NCBI GenBank assembly: GCA_022841985.1
Contig: JALHQL010000003.1
Span: 6,878-70,877, forward strand
Origin: Minisyncoccota bacterium
GTDB taxonomy: Bacteria; Patescibacteriota; Minisyncoccia; Phycocordibacterales; Phycocordibacteraceae
Direction of reading: 5' to 3'
Length of the DNA: 64,000 nt
The notes under the pieces were generated by a model. It did no database searches and was not told the DNA's origin. It saw nothing but the letters and a program-made list of their open reading frames with translations. The position numbers and the translations under genes are program-made. Shown here in pieces: positions 20,977 through 57,173 of the stretch. Numbering within the stretch: the stretch's first letter is position 1; each line of letters begins with the position of its first letter.

Positions 20977-20997
20977 GGGCCATTAGCTCAACTGGTA
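20977..20997 (+). pseudogene. Decayed tRNA-Ala 5' fragment (21 nt identical to the 5' end of tRNA-Ala at 21128)
   Basis: gggccattagctcaactggta is identical to 21128..21148. A second degenerate piece (gtagagcgcttcattatggtcc, ~21075..21096) resembles the D-arm plus 3' acceptor of the same tRNA. Confidence 0.4.
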
Positions 20998-21127
20998 AGC
21001 CCTTCGGGCTTCCTCCCTGCGCTCGCCTCGGACAAATAAACGAAGACGTTTTTTGTCGCTCGGCTCGCTTGGCAGTAGAGCGCTTCATTATGGTCCCGTG
21101 CCGTTCGGGTACATATGTGCGGACATC

Positions 21128-21200
21128 GGGCCATTAGCTCAACTGGTAGAGCGCGTCATTCGCATTGACGAGGCAAGCGGTTCGACTCCGCTATGGTCCA
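21128..21200 (+). tRNA. tRNA-Ala (anticodon CGC), CCA encoded at 21201..21203
   Basis: Manual fold. Acceptor GGGCCAT/ATGGTCC with G3:U70. Anticodon stem CGTCA/TGACG, loop TTCGCAT. T-loop TTCGACT. The 3' CCA overlaps the ATG of the downstream CDS. Confidence 0.8.
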
Positions 21201-21202
21201 CC

Positions 21203-22501
21203 ATGAGATCAGACATTGTTCATCCGGGTGCGGACAAGCTCAAGTATGAGATACGTGAGATTGTAACCGTTGCAAAGCGAGTTGCGCTCTCCGGCACACC
21301 GGTCGTGTGGGAGAATATCGGTGATCCTGTGGCTAAGGGCGAAGTTCCTCCAGAGTGGATAAAAAAAATTATCAGAGACACTCTTCAAGAAGATCAAAGT
21401 TTTTCCTATTCACCGACCAAGGGTTTGGATGAAACTCGCATCTATATCGCCCGCGAACGGAACCTCGAGGGTGGCATTCAGATACTGCCTGACGATATTT
21501 TATTTTTTAATGGGCTTGGCGACGGCATATCTCATATCTATCGGAATCTTAATCCTCGCGCGCGAATACTCGGACCCGATCCTGCCTACCCAACACATTC
21601 CTCTGCCGAAGCGGCTCATGCTAATAAGCCACACATGACGTACCGTCTTGACCCTGAAAAGGAGTGGCGGCCAGACCTTGTGGATATGGAGAAAAAGATA
21701 CGAGCAAATAAAAACATTGCTGGCATTCTTATCATTAATCCGGATAATCCGACGGGGTTTGTATATCCTCAAGAAACAATACGGGCTATAGTCGCACTCG
21801 CAAAGAAATATAAGCTTTTTATCGTTTCTGATGAAATTTATTCGAACCTTGCGTATGAAGGAAGCGGAATGCGCAAACTGGCATCGGTTATTGGCACCGT
21901 TCCGGGTATCGCTATGCGGGGAATCTCGAAAGAGTTTCCATGGCCAGGTGCAAGGTGCGGATGGATTGAGTTCTATAATCGAGGCAAGGACAAAAATTTT
22001 GATCGGTATGCGCGCTCAATCGTGGATTCAAAAATGCTTGAAGTGTGTTCGACGACGCTTCCTCAAAAAGTGTTGCCGAAAGTGATGGGGGATCCCCGCT
22101 ATTACCCCTATTTAGCAGCGCGTACACGCCATTACGAAGAACGTGCAGAGTATGCTCACGGGATACTTTCTAAAATCCCAAATATTATCGTTCACAAACC
22201 GCGTGGCGCATTTTATATGACGTGTGTGTTCCGGAAGGGGGCTCTGAAGAAAAACCAAACGCTTCCGGTACGGGGCGATCTAAAAAAGTTCATCGAGTCA
22301 TGTCTGACAAAGGCATCTTTGGATAAACGTTTTGTGTACTACCTCCTGGCTTCTACTGGTATCTGCGTTGTACCGCTCTCCTCCGGCTTTAACTCATCGC
22401 TCCAAGGGTTTCGGTTCTTGTTGTTGGAGCAGGATACCGATCGATTTAAAAAGACGATACATACGATAGCCAAAGCCATTTCTGATTTCGCAAAGTCTTG
22501 A
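21203..22501 (+). CDS. Pyridoxal-phosphate-dependent aminotransferase, class I/II (aspartate/alanine aminotransferase-like)
   Basis: Start at ATG 21203, directly after the tRNA. The track ORF from 21053 reads through the tRNA. Contains ILIINPDNPTGFVY, FIVSDEIYSNLAY, and the PLP-lysine context SKEFPWPGARCGWI. Confidence 0.75.
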   Translation: MRSDIVHPGADKLKYEIREIVTVAKRVALSGTPVVWENIGDPVAKGEVPPEWIKKIIRDTLQEDQSFSYSPTKGLDETRIYIARERNLEGGIQILPDDILFFNGLGDGISHIYRNLNPRARILGPDPAYPTHSSAEAAHANKPHMTYRLDPEKEWRPDLVDMEKKIRANKNIAGILIINPDNPTGFVYPQETIRAIVALAKKYKLFIVSDEIYSNLAYEGSGMRKLASVIGTVPGIAMRGISKEFPWPGARCGWIEFYNRGKDKNFDRYARSIVDSKMLEVCSTTLPQKVLPKVMGDPRYYPYLAARTRHYEERAEYAHGILSKIPNIIVHKPRGAFYMTCVFRKGALKKNQTLPVRGDLKKFIESCLTKASLDKRFVYYLLASTGICVVPLSSGFNSSLQGFRFLLLEQDTDRFKKTIHTIAKAISDFAKS

Positions 22502-26334: not shown

Positions 26335-26367
26335 GTGTTTTTAAGTCGGGACCCACTGCTCGATTAT

Positions 26368-29202
26368 ATGGGGTATGACCACAGCGAAATAGAGAAAAAA
26401 GCCCAAGAGAAATGGGCGACCTTGAATCTGTATGAGACAGATCTCAAAGATGACTCAAAAGAGTCGTACTATCTTCTTTTTGAGTTCCCTTATCCCTCAG
26501 GCGATCTACATATCGGGCATTGGTATGCCTACGCGATAACCGATGTCTACGCGCGTCTATTGCGTATGCGCGGGAAAAACGTTCTATTTCCGATAGGGTT
26601 TGATGCATTCGGTTTGCCAGCGGAAAATGCCGCGATGCGGAATGGCGCCGATCCAGCCATATGGACAAGAGCGAATATCGAGCGGATGAAGACACAGATC
26701 CGCTCGATGGGCACCTCGGTCGATTGGTCGAAAGAAATCATTACCTGCGATCCAAGTTACTACCAGTGGACGCAATGGCTTTTTGGGAAGCTTTTCGAAC
26801 ATAAACTCGCGGAGCATCGCGAGGCAGCGGTCAAATGGTGTCCGAAAGACCAAACAGTACTCGCCAACGAGCAGGTCGTTGACGGTTGCTGCGAACGATG
26901 TGGCACGGCGGTCGAGGAGAAACGGCTTACGCAGTGGTTTCTTAAGATTACTGACTACGCGGAGCGGCTTCTCACAGGCCTCGATGCGCTTTCGTGGCGC
27001 GAGGAAATAAAAGAGGCGCAGCGGGCCTGGATTGGGAAGAGCGAGGGCGCCTACCTCACGTTTCCAATTGTCAGTCGCGACGAGAAGATAAAAGTATTTA
27101 CCACACGACCGGACACTCTCTTCGGCGCGACCTACGTCGTACTTGCACCCGAACATCCTCTTATTGAAGGGTTTCGTAAATCCCTCATGAATGCGGACGA
27201 GGTATTTGAATATATCAAAGCGACGACGAAAAAGACCGAACGGGAACGCAGTGAAAATAAAGAGAAAACAGGTGTGAAGCTCGAAGGTATTTCAGCTATC
27301 AATCTCGCAACTAAAGAAGAGATTCCGGTGTATATTGCCGACTACGTCCTCGCGTCCTATGGTACTGGCGCCGTCATGGCCGTTCCTGCGCACGATGAAC
27401 GCGACTTCGAATTCGCAAGAGAAATGAAGCTTCCTATCAAGGAAGTAATACTGCCTGAACGCATCGACAAGAGAAATCCACCACTACCAGGCAAGGAGAG
27501 TATTGCGCGTAGAAATGTACATGCATTTGTTCGCGATCCAAAGACCGGGAAGATCTTATGCTTGCGCTGGAAAAAACATCCATGGATTACCTTTCCTATG
27601 GGCGGAATTGAGGAAGGGGAAGATGTCATCGGGGCTGCAAAACGAGAAATCAAGGAAGAAACCGGCTATACGCATCTTAAAAATCCGAGAGTGCTTGGTG
27701 GAGAAGTGCGTGCAGAATATTTTGCTGCTCATAAGGACCAGAATAGGATCTCATTTACAACACTTGTCGCATTTGATCTGAAAGACGACAAGCAAGTGGC
27801 TATTGCATCCGAGGAATCAGATGCTCATGAAGTGTTTTGGGCTGATCCTAGTGAAGTAACCGCTGCGCACATGACACACGCTGAGATGGATGTATGGCTC
27901 ACTCGACTTGCACATGAAAAAGAAGGTTCTGCGTTTACGGAATCAGGGGTATTGGCCAACTCAGGTGAGTTTAATGGCAGACGAAGTGAGGAGGTGAAAT
28001 GGGAAATTGTGCAATTCGTCGGTGGAGAAAGAACGACCCAGTACCGCCTGCGTGATTGGCTCATTTCTCGACAGCGCTATTGGGGTTGTCCGATACCAAT
28101 TGTTTACGACCCTGAAGGGAAGCCGCACGTTGTCCCCCCTGAGCATCTGCCATGGCTCTTGCCGACTGATGTGGACTTCAAGCCCACAGGTAAAGCGCCG
28201 CTCGCTTCTTCAAAAGAATTACAGGAGCGCGTTACACGTATTTTTGGCGAAGGATGGACACCGGAATATGACACGCTCGATACGTTTATGGACTCTTCAT
28301 GGTATTTTCTCCGCTATCTTGATCCGAAAGACGCTCATGATTTCTCTGATAGTGTGCTTATGAAGAAGTGGCTGCCAATCAACCGATACTCCGGGGGAAG
28401 TGAGCATACTACGATGCACCTCCTCTATGCGCGTTTCTTCATGAAAGCGCTCTACGATCTCGCACTTGTGCCGGTTGAGGAACCATTTATCGAGCGCTTC
28501 AATCGCGGACTCATCATGGGTCCCGATGGACAGAAAATGAGCAAGTCAAAAGGGAATGTCATTAATCCAGATGATTTCGTGAAAGAATATGGTGCGGATG
28601 CAGTGCGTATGTACCTCGCCTTTATTGGTCCTTACAACGAGCCCGGAAGTTATCCTTGGAATCTAGACGGCGTTGCGGCTATACGAAAATTTCTTGAACG
28701 AATTATACGTCTTGTCGAGCGAGTACAGGACATGAGCGAAATTCGTTCGACGCTGGCACTGGCACTTGCCCGGGCGAGCCACAAAGTTTCGGAAGACGGT
28801 GACAAGTTTAAGTTCAATACCAGTGTCGCAGCTCTTATGATACTTATGAATGAATTTGAGACTGCCACGATTGTTCCGAAATCTGCTTTTGCCTCTCTTG
28901 TGATCATGCTTGCGCCTTTTGCTCCGCATCTTGCTGAGCATCTTTGGGAGCGAATTGGAGGAAAGGGGAGTGTGCATCAAGCCGCATGGCCTGTCTTTCC
29001 TCAAGTAATCACTAATGAATACGAAGTCGTAGTGCAGGTAAACGGCAAACGACGTGGTTCGATACTGCTGGCTATCGACGCGACTGAATCAGATGCTGTT
29101 ATTGCCGCTCGCGCAGTGCCGACTGTAGAGGTATCTCTTGGTGGAAAGGAGCCTCGACGCGTTGTCTATGTAGCGGGTAAAATCGTCAATCTTGTGGTGT
29201 AA
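26368..29202 (+). CDS. leuS: Leucine--tRNA ligase carrying an inserted NUDIX hydrolase domain
   Basis: Start at ATG 26368. The track uses GTG 26335. Motifs are HIGH (PSGDLHIGHWYAY), CP1 editing domain (TTRPDTLFGATYVVLAPEHPL ... GTGAVMAVPAHDERDFEFA), KMSKS (GQKMSKSKGNV) and the C-terminal tRNA-binding region. A perfect Nudix box GGIEEGEDVIGAAKREIKEETGY lies inside a ~140-aa insert between the editing domain and VLANSGEFNG. Confidence 0.9.
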   Translation: MGYDHSEIEKKAQEKWATLNLYETDLKDDSKESYYLLFEFPYPSGDLHIGHWYAYAITDVYARLLRMRGKNVLFPIGFDAFGLPAENAAMRNGADPAIWTRANIERMKTQIRSMGTSVDWSKEIITCDPSYYQWTQWLFGKLFEHKLAEHREAAVKWCPKDQTVLANEQVVDGCCERCGTAVEEKRLTQWFLKITDYAERLLTGLDALSWREEIKEAQRAWIGKSEGAYLTFPIVSRDEKIKVFTTRPDTLFGATYVVLAPEHPLIEGFRKSLMNADEVFEYIKATTKKTERERSENKEKTGVKLEGISAINLATKEEIPVYIADYVLASYGTGAVMAVPAHDERDFEFAREMKLPIKEVILPERIDKRNPPLPGKESIARRNVHAFVRDPKTGKILCLRWKKHPWITFPMGGIEEGEDVIGAAKREIKEETGYTHLKNPRVLGGEVRAEYFAAHKDQNRISFTTLVAFDLKDDKQVAIASEESDAHEVFWADPSEVTAAHMTHAEMDVWLTRLAHEKEGSAFTESGVLANSGEFNGRRSEEVKWEIVQFVGGERTTQYRLRDWLISRQRYWGCPIPIVYDPEGKPHVVPPEHLPWLLPTDVDFKPTGKAPLASSKELQERVTRIFGEGWTPEYDTLDTFMDSSWYFLRYLDPKDAHDFSDSVLMKKWLPINRYSGGSEHTTMHLLYARFFMKALYDLALVPVEEPFIERFNRGLIMGPDGQKMSKSKGNVINPDDFVKEYGADAVRMYLAFIGPYNEPGSYPWNLDGVAAIRKFLERIIRLVERVQDMSEIRSTLALALARASHKVSEDGDKFKFNTSVAALMILMNEFETATIVPKSAFASLVIMLAPFAPHLAEHLWERIGGKGSVHQAAWPVFPQVITNEYEVVVQVNGKRRGSILLAIDATESDAVIAARAVPTVEVSLGGKEPRRVVYVAGKIVNLVV

Positions 29203-29251: not shown

Positions 29252-30331
29252 ATGGTCAAGTCTATCCAGACAAAAAAGGAGCGGAAGGAGGGCATAATCG
29301 TACCCTCTAACTTTTCCTTTGATAGTGCCGCGCTTGTAAAAAGTCTTTTGGCTTCTGCACCGGAGCGAGCGCGCGAAGTTCTTATTCGGCGTTTCGGTCT
29401 TGGCAGTAATCCCACTCGCGAAACGCTCGAGGCGATAGGCGATCGTTCGAGTATCACCCGTGAACGTGTCCGACAGATCGAGGCGGCTGGACTTGATGCG
29501 ATACGGGCAAGTAAGGCTTTCGCCGAGGCGAAAAAATCATTTGAGGAGATTGTTCAATATGTAGGTACTCTTGGCAGAGTCGTGCCTGAAGAAGAGTTGT
29601 TTGTTTTGCTTGGCAAAGATGAGAAGACTCGCAATCGGTTTCGTTTTCTTCTCATGATTGATTCGGCATTTTTCCGCGAGCGCGAGACGAACGATTTTCT
29701 TGCGCGTTGGCATATCGATCACACGACCGCGAAACATATTCACGATGCGCTTTCAAAACTTTATGCATCGCTTTCTGATACAGATGTTGTTTCCGAAGGA
29801 AAGATGCTCGATCTTTTCCTCGAGGAACTCAAGGGCGTGAATGACGCATACAAGAATGAAGAGGTGCTAAAGCGTTGGCTCTCTCTGTCAAAGCACATCA
29901 GTAGCAATCCGCTCGCCGAGTGGGGTCGTGTGACGGCTCCCGCAATTCGTATCAAAGGTATTCGTGATTATGCCTATCTTGCGGTAAAACGTCAGGGTTC
30001 TCCAATGCATTTCTCCGAGGTTGCTTCAACCATCGGCTCGATTTTCTCAAAGAAAGCACACATCGCAACGACGCATAATGAGCTTATTAAAGATCCACGC
30101 TTCGTGCTTGTAGGTCGCGGACTCTATGCGCTCACCGAGTGGGGTTATACGCCGGGTGTTGTGCGCGACGTCATTCGTGAGGCACTCAAGGAAGAGGGTC
30201 CGATGAAGAAGGATGAGATCGTCAAGCACGTAAAGAAAGCACGTTTCGTGAAGGACAATACCATTCTTGTGAATTTGAACGATCCGCGCTATTTCAAGCG
30301 CCTTAAAGACGGACGATATTCAGCTGTTTAA
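29252..30331 (+). CDS. DNA-binding protein with an N-terminal sigma-70 region-4-like HTH and a C-terminal HARE-HTH/RpoE(delta)-like winged helix
   Basis: The N-terminus ETLEAIGDRSSITRERVRQIEAAGLDAIR is a region-4 HTH. The C-terminus SPMHFSEVASTIGS...KDPRFVLVGRGLYALTEWGY resembles the HARE-HTH of RNA polymerase delta subunit. Confidence 0.45.
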   Translation: MVKSIQTKKERKEGIIVPSNFSFDSAALVKSLLASAPERAREVLIRRFGLGSNPTRETLEAIGDRSSITRERVRQIEAAGLDAIRASKAFAEAKKSFEEIVQYVGTLGRVVPEEELFVLLGKDEKTRNRFRFLLMIDSAFFRERETNDFLARWHIDHTTAKHIHDALSKLYASLSDTDVVSEGKMLDLFLEELKGVNDAYKNEEVLKRWLSLSKHISSNPLAEWGRVTAPAIRIKGIRDYAYLAVKRQGSPMHFSEVASTIGSIFSKKAHIATTHNELIKDPRFVLVGRGLYALTEWGYTPGVVRDVIREALKEEGPMKKDEIVKHVKKARFVKDNTILVNLNDPRYFKRLKDGRYSAV

Positions 30332-30358
30332 AAAACGACGCCACCAGCGTCGTTTTTT
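30331..30358 (+). terminator. Rho-independent terminator
   Basis: aaaaacgacgc cacca gcgtcgtttttt, directly after the stop of the HTH protein gene. Confidence 0.6.
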
Positions 30359-30553
30359 ACTACCAAGCGAGCTGAGTAACAAATGAATGTCTTCATTCAT
30401 TTGTTCGAGGCGAACGCCGGGAGAAAAGCTTCTTTACTACCAAGCGAGCTGAGTAACAAATGAATGTCTTCATTCATTTGTTCGAGGCGAACGCCGGGAG
30501 AAAAGCCTCTTTACTACCAAGCGAGCTGAGTAACAAATGAATGTCTTCATTCA
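30358..30553. repeat. Tandem direct repeat, 77-bp unit x ~2.5, each unit with a perfect 12-bp-arm palindrome
   Basis: The unit tactaccaagcgagctgagtaacaaatgaatgtcttcattcatttgttcgaggcgaacgccgggagaaaagc(t/c)tcttt recurs at 30358, 30435 and 30512. The third copy is truncated after ...gaatgtcttcattca. Each unit contains aacaaatgaatg-tctt-cattcatttgtt. Confidence 0.8.
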
Positions 30554-30617
30554 GAATACTCCGTTTGTTGTGCAGCGTGGATGGCGGGACGGGTTGTTTT
30601 ATTGGTATACTTAGCTT

Positions 30618-31964
30618 ATGTTATCGTTCTTTCAGGATATTTTTACAGAAAAATTCGGTATTCGCTTCACTGCGTGGCCGCTTTTTATATTTGGCGCGAT
30701 ACTTCTCGCAAATGCCTTCCTATGGATGCCCGATACCGTTTCTCTCGCTATCTCCCTCGCCCTCTCCCTTGCGCCAGTATGGTTGCCGTTTCTACTTGTC
30801 GGTGGAGCAGTGAAGCTTTGGTACATCTGGCAACGAGGGGAGTTCATTGCTTCCCAGGGATATGTACTTCTTGAAATAAAACCGCCGCGCAATCTCGTAA
30901 AAACACCGCTTGCCATGGAGCCATTCCTTTCGAGTTTGCATCTTACGGGAGGCGAATCGGATTGGTATAAGCTTCTTATCGGCGGCACGCGACCTAATTG
31001 GTCGCTTGAAATAGCCTCTCTTGAGGGGCAGGTACATTTTTTCGTATGGACGCGCATAAAACTTCGCGAGATCGTCGAAGCGCAGTTATATGCGCAATAT
31101 CCGGGAGTACAGGTAACCGAAGCTCCTGATTACAGCCGGCTCATTTCTGCGACGCCAGAAGAGTGGAATATTTGGGGTTGTGATTATAAAAAAGAGAGAA
31201 AAGATCCTTTGCCAATTAGGACGTATGTTCAATACGGGCTCGACAAAGTCCAGAAGGAGCCGGAACAGATTGATCCTCTTGCGAATATTATTGAGTTCAT
31301 GAGTTCCATTGGGAAGGGCGAGTACCTTTGGCTCCAGTTTGTCATACGCGCTCACAAAGGCGAGAAATACAACAAACTCAACAAAGATGGTGATGCATAT
31401 ACTTGGAAAGATGAGGCCAAGAAACTTATCGAAGAAGTTCGCGAAGAAACGCACGAAAAAGTTACTGATCCAGAGACTGGTAAAGAGGTGCTCGGATTTC
31501 CTAATCCCACCAAGGGCCAATTGGATAAAATATCCGCCATAGAAGAAAACATCGCGAAACTCGCTTTTGATGTCGGCGTGCGTTGTATATACCTTACTCG
31601 ACCGAAAAACTTCAGTCTTGCGAGGGTAATGCACATGATTACTCTCTTTAAACCATTTAACAGCGAGGTATGGAACAGTATCAATTCAACTGGCTGGTTG
31701 AAAAATTTTGCGAATTTTCCATGGGAATATCATGCGGATAAAACTAAGGATCGTTTTCGTCGGAGACTTGTCGAAGTCTATCGTCGCCGACAATTCTTCT
31801 ACGATCCCTTTTTTAAGGGAAGTTTGTCCCCGCATAAAATAATGGTAATGAGTACTGAGGAGCTTGCGACCGTCTTCCATATTCCATCGAGTTCTATTGA
31901 AGCACCGGGACTCACGCGCATACGTTCGGCGACCGGCAAAGCCCCTGTTAATCTTCCGATGTAA
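30618..31964 (+). CDS. Hypothetical membrane protein (two N-terminal TM helices plus a ~380-aa soluble domain)
   Basis: 448 aa. N-terminal FGIRFTAWPLFIFGAILLANAFLW...LAISLALSLAPVWLPFLLVGGAV. The remainder is charged and helical. No recognised domain. Confidence 0.45.
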   Translation: MLSFFQDIFTEKFGIRFTAWPLFIFGAILLANAFLWMPDTVSLAISLALSLAPVWLPFLLVGGAVKLWYIWQRGEFIASQGYVLLEIKPPRNLVKTPLAMEPFLSSLHLTGGESDWYKLLIGGTRPNWSLEIASLEGQVHFFVWTRIKLREIVEAQLYAQYPGVQVTEAPDYSRLISATPEEWNIWGCDYKKERKDPLPIRTYVQYGLDKVQKEPEQIDPLANIIEFMSSIGKGEYLWLQFVIRAHKGEKYNKLNKDGDAYTWKDEAKKLIEEVREETHEKVTDPETGKEVLGFPNPTKGQLDKISAIEENIAKLAFDVGVRCIYLTRPKNFSLARVMHMITLFKPFNSEVWNSINSTGWLKNFANFPWEYHADKTKDRFRRRLVEVYRRRQFFYDPFFKGSLSPHKIMVMSTEELATVFHIPSSSIEAPGLTRIRSATGKAPVNLPM

Positions 31965-35278: not shown

Positions 35279-36148
35279 ATGACATCGTCAGTCGTTATTG
35301 TCAAAGCCGACGGATCAAGTGAATTATTTGATCCGGAACGGCTCGTGAGCTCGCTCCGGCGCTCTGGTGCGGGCGAGCATGCCGCAGAGCGTATCGCAGA
35401 GACAATTACGAATACGATCGCACCAGGCACTTCCTCAAAGGAAGTCTATACGCGGGCCTTTGCGCTTTTGCGCAAGGAGGCGCGTCCGGTTGCCGCTCGC
35501 TATGCGTTGCGGCGCGCGCTTCTTGAGCTCGGTCCGACCGGCCATCCATTTGAGGACTTCATCTCGCATCTCTACCGTGCAGAGGGTTGGCAAGTTGAAA
35601 CACGTAAGATAATAAAAGGAAAATGCGTATCGCACGAAGTCGATTTCTATGCATCGAATCGGGAGCGGAATACTTTTATTGCTGCCGAATTGAAGTATCA
35701 TAATGATCCTGGTTATAAAACCGATTTAAAAGTCGCACTCTACGTCAAGAGTCGTTTTGATGATATTTTCAATTGTGATTCCGCTGTCCGCTTGTGCCCG
35801 ATTGACCGCGGTCTTTTGGTTACCAATACTAAGTTTACCTCCGAAGCTATCGCTTATGCAGAATGTTCGGGTGTAGAACTCCTCGGGTGGGGGTATCCGG
35901 CAGAGAATGGTCTTTTTGCTCGTATGAGCCGTGCACATGTGTACCCTATTACTACATTGACCTGCCTTTCGAACGCTGAAAAACGGATCCTTATCGAGAG
36001 TGGCATTATTGCAGTTGATGAAATCATACGAGATCATCGTGCGCTTGATCCGCTGCGTCTCACTCCGGAGCGAGTGGGCAAGATCCTTGCTGAAGCAGAA
36101 GGTCTTCTTGAGCTTTCAAACGGTCTTCATGGTACTGTTCCCGTATGA
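35279..36148 (+). CDS. ATP-cone domain fused to a restriction-endonuclease-like (Mrr-cat, PD-(D/E)xK) domain
   Basis: The N-terminus VVIVKADGSSELFDPERLVSSL...SSKEVYTRAFALLRKEARPVAARYALRR matches the ATP-cone consensus (VIKRDGxxExFDxxKI...YxxYR). The middle EGWQVETRKIIKGKCVSHEVDFYA...IAAELKYHN gives D...E-x-K nuclease core residues. Confidence 0.55.
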   Translation: MTSSVVIVKADGSSELFDPERLVSSLRRSGAGEHAAERIAETITNTIAPGTSSKEVYTRAFALLRKEARPVAARYALRRALLELGPTGHPFEDFISHLYRAEGWQVETRKIIKGKCVSHEVDFYASNRERNTFIAAELKYHNDPGYKTDLKVALYVKSRFDDIFNCDSAVRLCPIDRGLLVTNTKFTSEAIAYAECSGVELLGWGYPAENGLFARMSRAHVYPITTLTCLSNAEKRILIESGIIAVDEIIRDHRALDPLRLTPERVGKILAEAEGLLELSNGLHGTVPV

Positions 36149-56499: not shown

Positions 56500-57072
56500 A
56501 TGAATACCTTAGGAGCCCTTATGGGCTTTTTGCTTTTATCTGGCGGCACAACGATGTTATCAGAAGCACCAAAAACGCCCGGATTCTCTGGCTACTCGGT
56601 GACGCTGCCAGGGCACGAGGTAACTCTTACTGCCTATAACGCCGTACCTGAACAGACTGACGATGACCCTCTTGTCACCGCCTCCGGCGCATATTCGAAC
56701 CCCGAGGTCATTGCAGCGCGTTCTCGTGACCTTGTCGATAAGTTGCCCTTTGGCACAATTATCGAGATTGACGGTACCGATGCTTCGAAAAAGAATTGCG
56801 GGTACGATATCGTTGCTCCTATCATCGGGTATCGCGTCATTGCGGATACCATGAACGCACGATACACCGACCGCATTGATATTCTCTTCGATACAGAGTC
56901 TAACTACACTCTTGCAGACGGTAGAACAAAAAATGCTGGTATAGTACTGGGTATTTGTAGCGGTGTGACAATCCGTGTTGTGGGACATGTCGCTATAAAG
57001 AACATTCCTAAGACGCAGATTGAGCTTGCAAAAATCGTAAAGGGCGACAGCAATGCACTCGCACTTAAATAA
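56500..57072 (+). CDS. 3D domain-containing protein (MltA/RlpA-like double-psi beta-barrel), secreted
   Basis: 190 aa with a signal peptide. TAYNAVPEQTDDDPLVTASGAY...FGTIIEIDG...RIDILFDT matches 3D domain conserved Asp positions. Confidence 0.6.
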   Translation: MNTLGALMGFLLLSGGTTMLSEAPKTPGFSGYSVTLPGHEVTLTAYNAVPEQTDDDPLVTASGAYSNPEVIAARSRDLVDKLPFGTIIEIDGTDASKKNCGYDIVAPIIGYRVIADTMNARYTDRIDILFDTESNYTLADGRTKNAGIVLGICSGVTIRVVGHVAIKNIPKTQIELAKIVKGDSNALALK

Positions 57073-57173
57073 GACGTAGGAACGTCTTGCTCCTCAGCGC
57101 TCGTTCGGAAAAGAAAAATTGCTTTTCTTTTCACTCACTCGCTTGAGAGTAAATCGTAGGTACTTGCAATGCA

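Follow-up and report, generated by a model that had tools for sequence, protein, structure and literature searches.

A head-to-tail nest of three hairpin-forming mini-elements, probably a recent insertion from a dispersed Patescibacteria family

Repetitive extragenic palindromic (REP) sequences are imperfect palindromes of 20-40 bp with an unpaired GTAG/CGTC tag at one end, and they include GTAG-tagged superfamilies (PMC3733652). The insertion sequence IS608, of the IS200/IS605 type, targets TTAC (PMC3201880, PMC5027513). [quoted passage not shown] TIGR systems, which occur in the candidate phyla radiation (CPR), contain box C/D k-turns with G·A pairs (PMC12045711). Here, we describe a tandem array in a 64,000-nt stretch of contig JALHQL010000003.1 from a Minisyncoccota bacterium (hereafter the window, at its full length), located between the gene of a helix-turn-helix (HTH) protein and that of a DUF8128 membrane protein. 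The array is probably a recently inserted nest of three head-to-tail, non-coding, hairpin-forming mini-elements (77-88 nt) from a dispersed Patescibacteria family that resembles REP sequences or IS200/IS605-derived MITEs. The element itself is dispersed, non-coding and conserved in structure, with precise presence/absence polymorphism between close relatives. In the literature that we searched, no such element is described for CPR bacteria.

Tandem Repeats Finder places a repeat of period 77 at 30356-30553 (2.6 copies, 99 % matches, score 389). A perfect 28-nt palindrome with 12+12 arms, AACAAATGAATG-tctt-CATTCATTTGTT, stands at 30378-30405 and again at 30455-30482, with 0 matches expected from dinucleotide shuffles. 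These results confirm the 77-bp units, each with a 12+12 perfect palindrome, that an earlier note on this DNA had described. The single t/c difference it reported between units is likewise found, as T30430 in the first unit (E2) versus C30507 in the second (E1), and its view of the array as non-coding was correct. The third palindrome is interrupted after CATTCA, at position 30553. The earlier note read this as a third copy cut off mid-palindrome; the break is real, but the repeat-related block runs on to 30602 and the third unit is full-length. The upstream gene (29252-30331) encodes a protein with Sigma70_r4 and HARE-HTH domains, and the DUF8128 gene lies at 30618-31964. Comparison with the empty site of a close relative defines the inserted block as 30361-30602, 242 nt in units of 77 + 77 + 88 nt. 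The features of the block and its flanks, with scores from two covariance models (R1 and R2), are:

30329..30359, forward strand: terminator-like hairpin of the HTH gene, TAAAAAACGACGC-cacca-GCGTCGTTTTTTA, a perfect 13-nt inverted repeat also present in the array-less relatives L031 and L032.
30361..30437, forward strand: element copy E2, 77 nt, TACC...CTTTAC, preceded by TTTTTTAC; R1 99.8 bits, R2 95.5 bits; absent from the L031/L032 site.
30438..30514, forward strand: element copy E1, 77 nt, one base off E2.
30515..30602, forward strand: element copy E0, 88 nt, chimeric or degenerate; aligned full-length by the covariance model at 25-28 bits.
30378..30405 in E2, 30455-30482 in E1, and 30532-30553 plus 30564-30569 in E0, where it is broken; no strand assigned: apical 12-bp hairpin (the palindrome), equal to helix P3 of the family consensus.
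30603..30617, forward strand: original spacer kept 3' of the insertion, TGGTATACTTAGCTT, which aligns with L031 and L032.

The first 39 nt of E0 equal those of E1. They are followed by CATTCA, GAATACTCCG and TTTGTT and then by a divergent tail, which ends in TTTTAT and abuts the original flank TGGTATAC. The right boundary of E0 is fixed by the empty site, and the covariance model places its TTTAT terminus on the CTTAC terminus of the family.

The DUF8128 protein has homologs of 97 % identity in L031 and of 80 % in L032-L036. In all of them the spacer between the HTH and DUF8128 genes is 44-45 nt long, carries no palindrome and reads ...GTCGTTTTTTAT/TGGTATAC..., where the slash marks the junction at which the window has 242 extra nt. 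The junction itself is ...GCGTCGTTTTTTAT/TGGTATACTT... in L031 and ...GCGTCGTTTTTTAC/TACC...242 nt...GGGTTGTTTTAT/TGGTATACTT... in the window. Across L031-L040 (~110 kb, relatives 77-97 % identical), the syntenic region contains no element copy. The whole block is missing from a strain that is 97 % identical in the adjacent protein; the array is therefore not a control region for its neighbour genes, and the same absence supports the recent expansion proposed earlier. The element appears to have no dedicated role for either of the two genes. The insertion target at the array is the T-run plus A(C/T) of the HTH-gene terminator hairpin. On the opposite side, 30603-30617 holds an extended -10-like TGnTATACT (TGGTATACT) directly before the DUF8128 start codon, by its sequence a putative promoter, and the insertion lands just 5' of this motif and leaves it intact.

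The element is not confined to this site. Genome and metagenome collections were scanned for the inner 20 nt of the palindrome, R1 was built from an alignment of 9 homologs, and the window was searched with filters off. About 85 nt around the palindrome are homologous to the whole unit in L004, L007/L022/L025, L023, L008, L009, L010/L018, L027 and L029. Covariance-model copies, single or nested, occur on at least 10 CPR contigs outside the window, namely those just listed (two copies in L009) together with L041 and L044. The contigs found by the palindrome scan carry the element singly, except for the nest in L009. Within the 64 kb of the window, the covariance models find 3 element loci with 5 copies, all intergenic, the matches besides the array being 20992-21079(-) and 57073-57153(-). 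For the search suggested by the earlier note, of the rest of the genome and of related genomes, these 64 kb yield two further loci in addition to the CPR contigs:

20995..21074, reverse strand: copy B, 80 nt, hairpin GACAAAAAACG-tctt-CGTTTATTTGTC; R1 79 bits (E 5e-19), R2 84.5 bits; within a tRNA cluster.
57074..57153, reverse strand: copy C, an 80-nt insert, hairpin GAAAAGAAAA..TTTTCTTTTC; R1 43 bits, R2 65 bits.

Copy C lies between the stop codon of gene 56500-57072 and the terminator of the same gene. This site is occupied in a 92 % relative (L041) and empty in two 85 % relatives (L046, L047), in which TCGTAGGTA...terminator follows the stop codon directly. The L044 copy separates uvrB from uvrA in one strain from Hainich groundwater, the source also of L032-L036 and L045. 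At copy C (57070-57076) and at the L044 copy (270-280), the 3' CTTA of the element overlaps the opposite-strand TAA stop of the upstream gene, and the insertions abut the stop codons exactly.

Elsewhere, the neighbours of the element include tRNAs, ThrRS, an ABC transporter, a VirB4/TraG-like ATPase, uvrB/uvrA, L25, CTP synthase and a ROK kinase. A Pfam comparison of 20 flanking proteins from 9 loci shows no shared neighbour family, and L009, whose element is closest in sequence to that of the window, shows no synteny with the window. Copies stand at many loci beside unrelated genes, and the unit is thus a dispersed repeat tied to no particular gene, the finding that the earlier note had named as refuting its own view. 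Where the flanking genes are co-directional, the element is antisense to them at 7/9 sites. Its flanks are 85-95 % conserved across metagenome-assembled genomes (MAGs) labelled Saccharibacteria and Kaiserbacteria-like, and the hairpin sequences differ between copies of the same genome, as in the window. Rfam 15 gives no match on the region even at E<=10, and the whole window contains only tRNAs at gathering score.

Several other matches were considered for membership in the family. Two Bacteroidota matches (L002, L003) were rejected, with only the searched palindrome in common, and several eukaryote-like repeats are also chance matches. The JGI20163J15578 metagenome (L006, L011, L014-L016, L020, L021, L026) contains a different multi-copy hairpin family with the core CAAATGAATG-nnnn-CATTCATTTG. 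This family has a CAAGCG 5' flank (GATACAAGCGTCAAAAGGTCAT...ATGACTTTGGGACGCGCAAAAC) and may be a distant relative in other bacteria.

The conserved flanks of the family read (Y)TAC-TACCAAGCGAGCCGAG ... CGAGGCGAGCGCAGGGAGAAAGC-loop-GCTTAC. Given close copies in a plain MAFFT alignment, RNAalifold predicts an imperfect rod. A short outer helix is followed by a middle one, then by an apical helix of 12 bp whose tetraloop varies, and by a 3' mini-hairpin. The middle helix is broken by a bulged pyrimidine and by two tandem G·A/A·G mismatches, in which GCGAGCCGAG faces CGAGGCGAGC. The mini-hairpin is AAGC-nnn-GCTT, extended in some copies to AAGCCC-nnn-GGGCTT. The apical hairpin, of 10-12 bp, varies in sequence among copies and keeps its pairing. 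Across 14 distinct copies, 97.1 % of cells are paired, both sides have changed in 16/25 pairs and 35 cells are compensated. None of 500 shuffles reaches these values, and slid controls pair at 35-46 %. MAFFT misaligned the hairpins of diverged copies, and these figures come from an alignment guided by the covariance model, which leans towards the model structure. The fold conclusion is nevertheless robust, because RNAalifold recovers the rod independently and the self-complementary stems are plainly different. G-U cells (13) are more numerous than A·C cells (8). RNA folding energies of the element strand are somewhat lower than those of its complement (-24.9 vs -21.8 and -31.0 vs -26.9 kcal/mol), and the element strand reproduces the consensus rod. 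Together, the G·A pairs, the G-U excess and the modelled energies favour the strand reading TACCAAGCG... as the folded one, a preference that would fit RNA and single-stranded DNA alike.

The junctions follow a recurrent pattern. Terminal inverted repeats were sought and are absent, the ends TACCAAGCG... and ...GCTTAC not being reverse complements, and the empty and filled sites of the array and copy C show no target-site duplication. All 13 aligned covariance-model copies are preceded by YTAY, which is YTAC in 12 and TTAT in L023; the L005 match aligns poorly. The 3' ends of the element are YTAC or TTAT. Left and right cores differ within copies, for example GGCTAC/GCTTAC in L008 and TCCTAC/GCTTAC in L010.

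Four copies (B, L010, L027 and L029) sit inside a tRNA D-loop and break it precisely after CTAC, a sequence antisense to the conserved GGTAGAGC. In all four, the left CTAC is native D-arm sequence that was already present, and removing the element restores an intact D-arm. The 5' end of the element, TACCAAGCGAGC, is itself the antisense of the D-arm-like GCTCGCTTGGTA. The interrupted tRNA is fragmentary in all four cases, and in B, L010 and L029 it has the same identity as the adjoining intact tRNA. Thus, a tRNA-Gln fragment in L010 (230-400) duplicates its intact neighbour, as does a tRNA-Ala(ggc) fragment in L029 (995-1140), while in L027 (990-1120) a tRNA 5' half stands beside a non-matching tRNA-Thr. 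For copy B, the interrupted gene is:

20977..21098, forward strand: pseudo-tRNA-Ala(cgc), split by copy B and internally deleted, as identified by sequence comparison with the intact tRNA.

What is left of it is an 18-nt 5' fragment at 20977-20994, followed by GTAGAGCGC and a short 3' remnant (GTAGAGCGC..ATGGTCCCG at 21075-21098), with copy B inserted after CTCTAC in the D-loop. An intact tRNA-Ala(cgc) follows 29 nt downstream, at 21128-21203. An 80 % relative (L048) shares the left flank of this locus and has neither the element nor the pseudo-tRNA; L043-L045 are not syntenic with the locus. The D-loop insertions suggest either D-arm targeting that survives only in redundant copies or local duplication associated with insertion. 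Between the four sites whose targets are known, the left and right cores vary in pattern, which would also fit core-exchange recombination with heteroduplex segregation.

Further observations concern tRNA loci in related contigs. In L001 (3160-3330; Kaiserbacteria MAG JAYVPP010000095), a related hairpin flanked by CGAGG/ACGAGG is contained in a degenerate tRNA-like duplicate right after tRNA-Ile(tat), with the 17-nt direct repeat ACTCAGGATyTTCGATA on both sides. The contig of a 92 % relative (L042, 4978-5024) ends inside the first tRNA-Ala after ddl, which fits assembly breakage at repeated tRNA/element sequence. In an 84 % relative (L043, 4978-7175), a large serine recombinase gene and a terminase-like gene follow tRNA-Ala(tgc) right after ddl, probably as a prophage that has integrated at the position occupied in the window by the tRNA cluster.

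A nest comparable to the array is found in L009, with three head-to-tail units, E, F and E', each ending in TTTAC and with different hairpins in E and E'. Segment F (2783-2944, 162 nt) ends in TTTTAC, and the tail of E0 is ~70 % identical to its 3' end. The first hairpin of segment F resembles a palindromised version of the 5' half of the element. Nests of unlike units suggest repeated insertion at a TTAC that every copy regenerates, and nests of this kind do not arise from slippage.

Compared with the REP/REPIN system and its transposase RAYT, the element shares short, dispersed intergenic imperfect palindromes that often lie 3' of genes or beside terminators and fold as a single strand. It has no coding capacity, mobilisation in trans being presumed, and the complement of its left boundary reads GGTAGTAG in 8/13 aligned copies, a possible tag of the GTAG type. 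However, it spans 77-88 nt rather than 20-40 bp (28 nt for the core hairpin alone), and, compared with classical GTAG REPs, its tag stands at the opposite side of the hairpin. Conservation lies in the rod with its tandem G·A mismatches, the apical stem being variable. Whereas REPs are mostly species-specific, the flanks here stay conserved between distant lineages. Several copies also occupy tRNA D-loops, and no RAYT gene is among the 17 window open reading frames (ORFs) scanned.

With IS200/IS605 and its non-autonomous derivatives (palindrome-associated transposable elements, PATEs, or MITE-like forms), the element shares precise insertion without terminal inverted repeats or target-site duplication, as seen at the array and copy C. 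Hairpin-bearing ends and a strand-specific fold are further likenesses; insertion adjoining a specific tetra- or pentanucleotide may be another, the YTAC/TTAT core comparing with the TTAC target of IS608. In contrast to the distinct left and right subterminal hairpins of IS200/IS605, the element is one long rod with a 3' mini-hairpin; its right end resembles the target, which would allow self-stacking, and neither TnpA nor TnpB was found near the copies. A GTAA next to the stem could pair with TTAC, as in guide/cleavage-site pairing, but this GTAA is not conserved. The element is mostly antisense to genes, unlike IS608, which is biased to the lagging-strand template.

Classical MITEs are likewise small, non-autonomous, intergenic and polymorphic in presence, often in 3' untranslated regions (UTRs) or next to terminators; the element, tested for terminal inverted repeats and target-site duplications, lacks both. 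It therefore falls outside the MITE definition and matches those of REP and PATE only in part, the points of doubt being size and tag position for REP and the two end hairpins and TnpA for PATE. Integron attC sites resemble it in their folded single strand, extra-helical or mismatched bases, conserved flanks and variable centre, and attC arrays grow head-to-tail by repeated site-specific insertion. Unlike these, the element has no cassettes or ORFs between copies and no R/L box consensus (RYYYAAC/GTTRRRY), is dispersed, and was seen with no integron integrase. By analogy, it is best read as a mini-element that works in the manner of REP or IS200/IS605, with some resemblance to an attC site in its layout.

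Tandem non-coding hairpin repeats upstream of a protein gene also recall TIGR-Tas and type III toxin-antitoxin arrays. TIGR-Tas arrays have 36-nt guides, box C/D motifs, dual spacers and an adjacent Nop-domain Tas protein. That assignment was rejected, as the 77-nt units lack RUGAUGA/CUGA boxes, occur elsewhere singly and dispersed, and here neighbour HTH and DUF8128 genes. A type III toxin-antitoxin array was rejected for its mismatched architecture. A dif/Xer site has the core ATAA-N6-TTAT, is a single 28-bp site per chromosome, at the terminus, and is shared by relatives. It was considered for the 11-6-11 layout of the 28-bp palindrome and rejected, the palindrome being multi-copy, absent in close relatives and unlike the dif core.

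The nest, if it is the insertion that we favour, may have formed as follows. The element would insert site-specifically next to a YTAY core, as found in terminator tails, at stop codons and in the antisense of the tRNA D-arm GGTAGAGC. The substrate is probably one folded DNA strand, as in the 'peel-and-paste' of IS200/IS605 or in REP/RAYT, and the mobilising enzyme would act in trans. A copy ending in TTAC would recreate the preferred target and so let further copies stack head-to-tail. Alternatively, the E2/E1 step may come from replication slippage between flanking TTTAC repeats.

Several results weigh against this account. Neither next to any copy nor in the 17 window ORFs scanned, a set that is not exhaustive, was a transposase or recombinase gene found. 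Viral contigs give 0 matches in exact and flank-pattern scans, and phages and plasmids no blastn match; nor did a fuzzy search of the retrieved loci for element termini reveal a long element that could be an autonomous parent. The copy count in the host covers 64 kb only. Target cores are not uniform: the empty allele of site C has its YTAC off the junction, that of the array (site A) has TTAT, and the L044 copy is preceded by CTTC. The chimeric E0 is unexplained by simple insertion, and E2/E1 are equally derivable by slippage between 5-6-nt direct repeats. Finally, a functional RNA would also account for the high flank conservation across CPR classes, the strong covariation and the somewhat better folding of one strand.

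A more far-reaching proposal, which we put forward tentatively and hold to be unlikely as a whole, is that the family represents an undescribed class of structure-defined mobile DNA in Patescibacteria. Such elements would consist of an 80-nt G·A rod with a free apical stem, moved by a single-strand DNA enzyme that may be host-encoded. They would home to YTAC cores, notably the antisense tRNA D-arm, leave split pseudo-tRNAs beside duplicated intact tRNAs, stack onto themselves into arrays and spread between CPR classes nearly unchanged.

The alternative that survives best is a single insertion followed by array growth purely through replication slippage or unequal crossing-over, which we consider possible, though doubtful. 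The near-identity of E2 and E1, one base apart within brackets of 5-6-nt direct repeats (TTTAC), is what such growth would produce, and a 24-bp perfect palindrome is a classic slippage promoter. Other copies are also accompanied by short local duplications, in the form of partial tRNA duplicates. The third unit, however, has a different tail homologous to another element type, L009 stacks non-identical elements head-to-tail, and the array begins and ends exactly at element termini against an intact target.

It is decidedly improbable that the elements are instead structured RNA genes or modules, such as a multi-copy small RNA (sRNA) or a protein-binding 3'-UTR module with the G·A rod as platform, and that the array is their local amplification. 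Strong covariation with conserved non-canonical G·A pairs, the better and consensus-like folding of the element strand and the G-U cells exceeding the A·C cells (13 vs 8) are consistent with this explanation. So are flanks conserved between Saccharibacteria- and Kaiserbacteria-like-labelled MAGs and the 3'-UTR position of several copies, which REPs share. Yet the spacers of 80-130 nt have neither room nor consensus for promoters or terminators, the element runs antisense to genes at 7/9 co-directional sites, and copies reside in dead tRNA fragments. Close relatives without copies have unchanged neighbouring genes, and in Rfam nothing matches up to E<=10. An element could be both active as RNA and mobile. 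As local functions, the sRNA locus and terminator stack raised in the earlier note are not upheld for a dispersed element whose site is empty in relatives, and promoter and terminator scans returned nothing exceeding chance.

An assembly artefact in the array copy number is very unlikely. The sequence comes from a MAG, a typical read or k-mer is longer than one 77-bp unit, and exact look-ups of the HTH and DUF8128 proteins in a gene-position index gave no match. Set against this, a pure assembly loop is disfavoured by the single-nucleotide difference between E2 and E1, the third unit stands apart in structure, and the flank junctions are clean and agree with the empty site. Were the count collapsed or expanded, the identification as an inserted family member would still be the same.

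An array of operators for the Sigma70_r4/HARE-HTH protein, or a regulatory 5' leader of the DUF8128 gene, both proposed earlier from the position of dyad-symmetric sites between the HTH gene and its downstream neighbour, can be dismissed with near certainty, since the gene pair is kept in L031-L036 with a 44-45-nt spacer and no palindrome, the palindrome and its flanks recur elsewhere beside unrelated genes without the HTH gene, and the hairpin sequence varies among copies within the same genome.

The genes near the array are typical of Patescibacteria and include LeuRS with a NUDIX insert, DUF5671, YceG and MnmA, the named homologs of surrounding genes belonging to Kaiserbacteria, Paceibacteria and Minisyncoccia MAGs. 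In LeuRS (26335-29202), the NUDIX domain is inserted after the editing domain and is retained in 80 % relatives. In ORF 35279-36148, an ATP-cone domain occurs together with a weak match to Mrr_cat (restriction endonuclease-like), and this 289-aa gene is conserved in relatives.

Genomes of CPR/Patescibacteria measure ~1 Mb and are streamlined, and repeats and mobile DNA are considered scarce in them. With the regulatory-array framing explained away, what remains is a recent, structure-defined mini-element, its targeting of the tRNA D-arm and the question of its mobiliser, for which the conserved non-canonical rod offers a handle for finding the recognising enzyme. Such elements break short-read assemblies and, in automated scans, can be mistaken for regulatory arrays, sRNAs or CRISPR-like repeats. 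A tiny hairpin family that is still inserting, absent where the adjacent protein is 97 % identical, points to ongoing genome turnover and provides a strain-level marker. Its affinity for the tRNA D-arm suggests a route to the duplication and decay of tRNA genes in minimal genomes.

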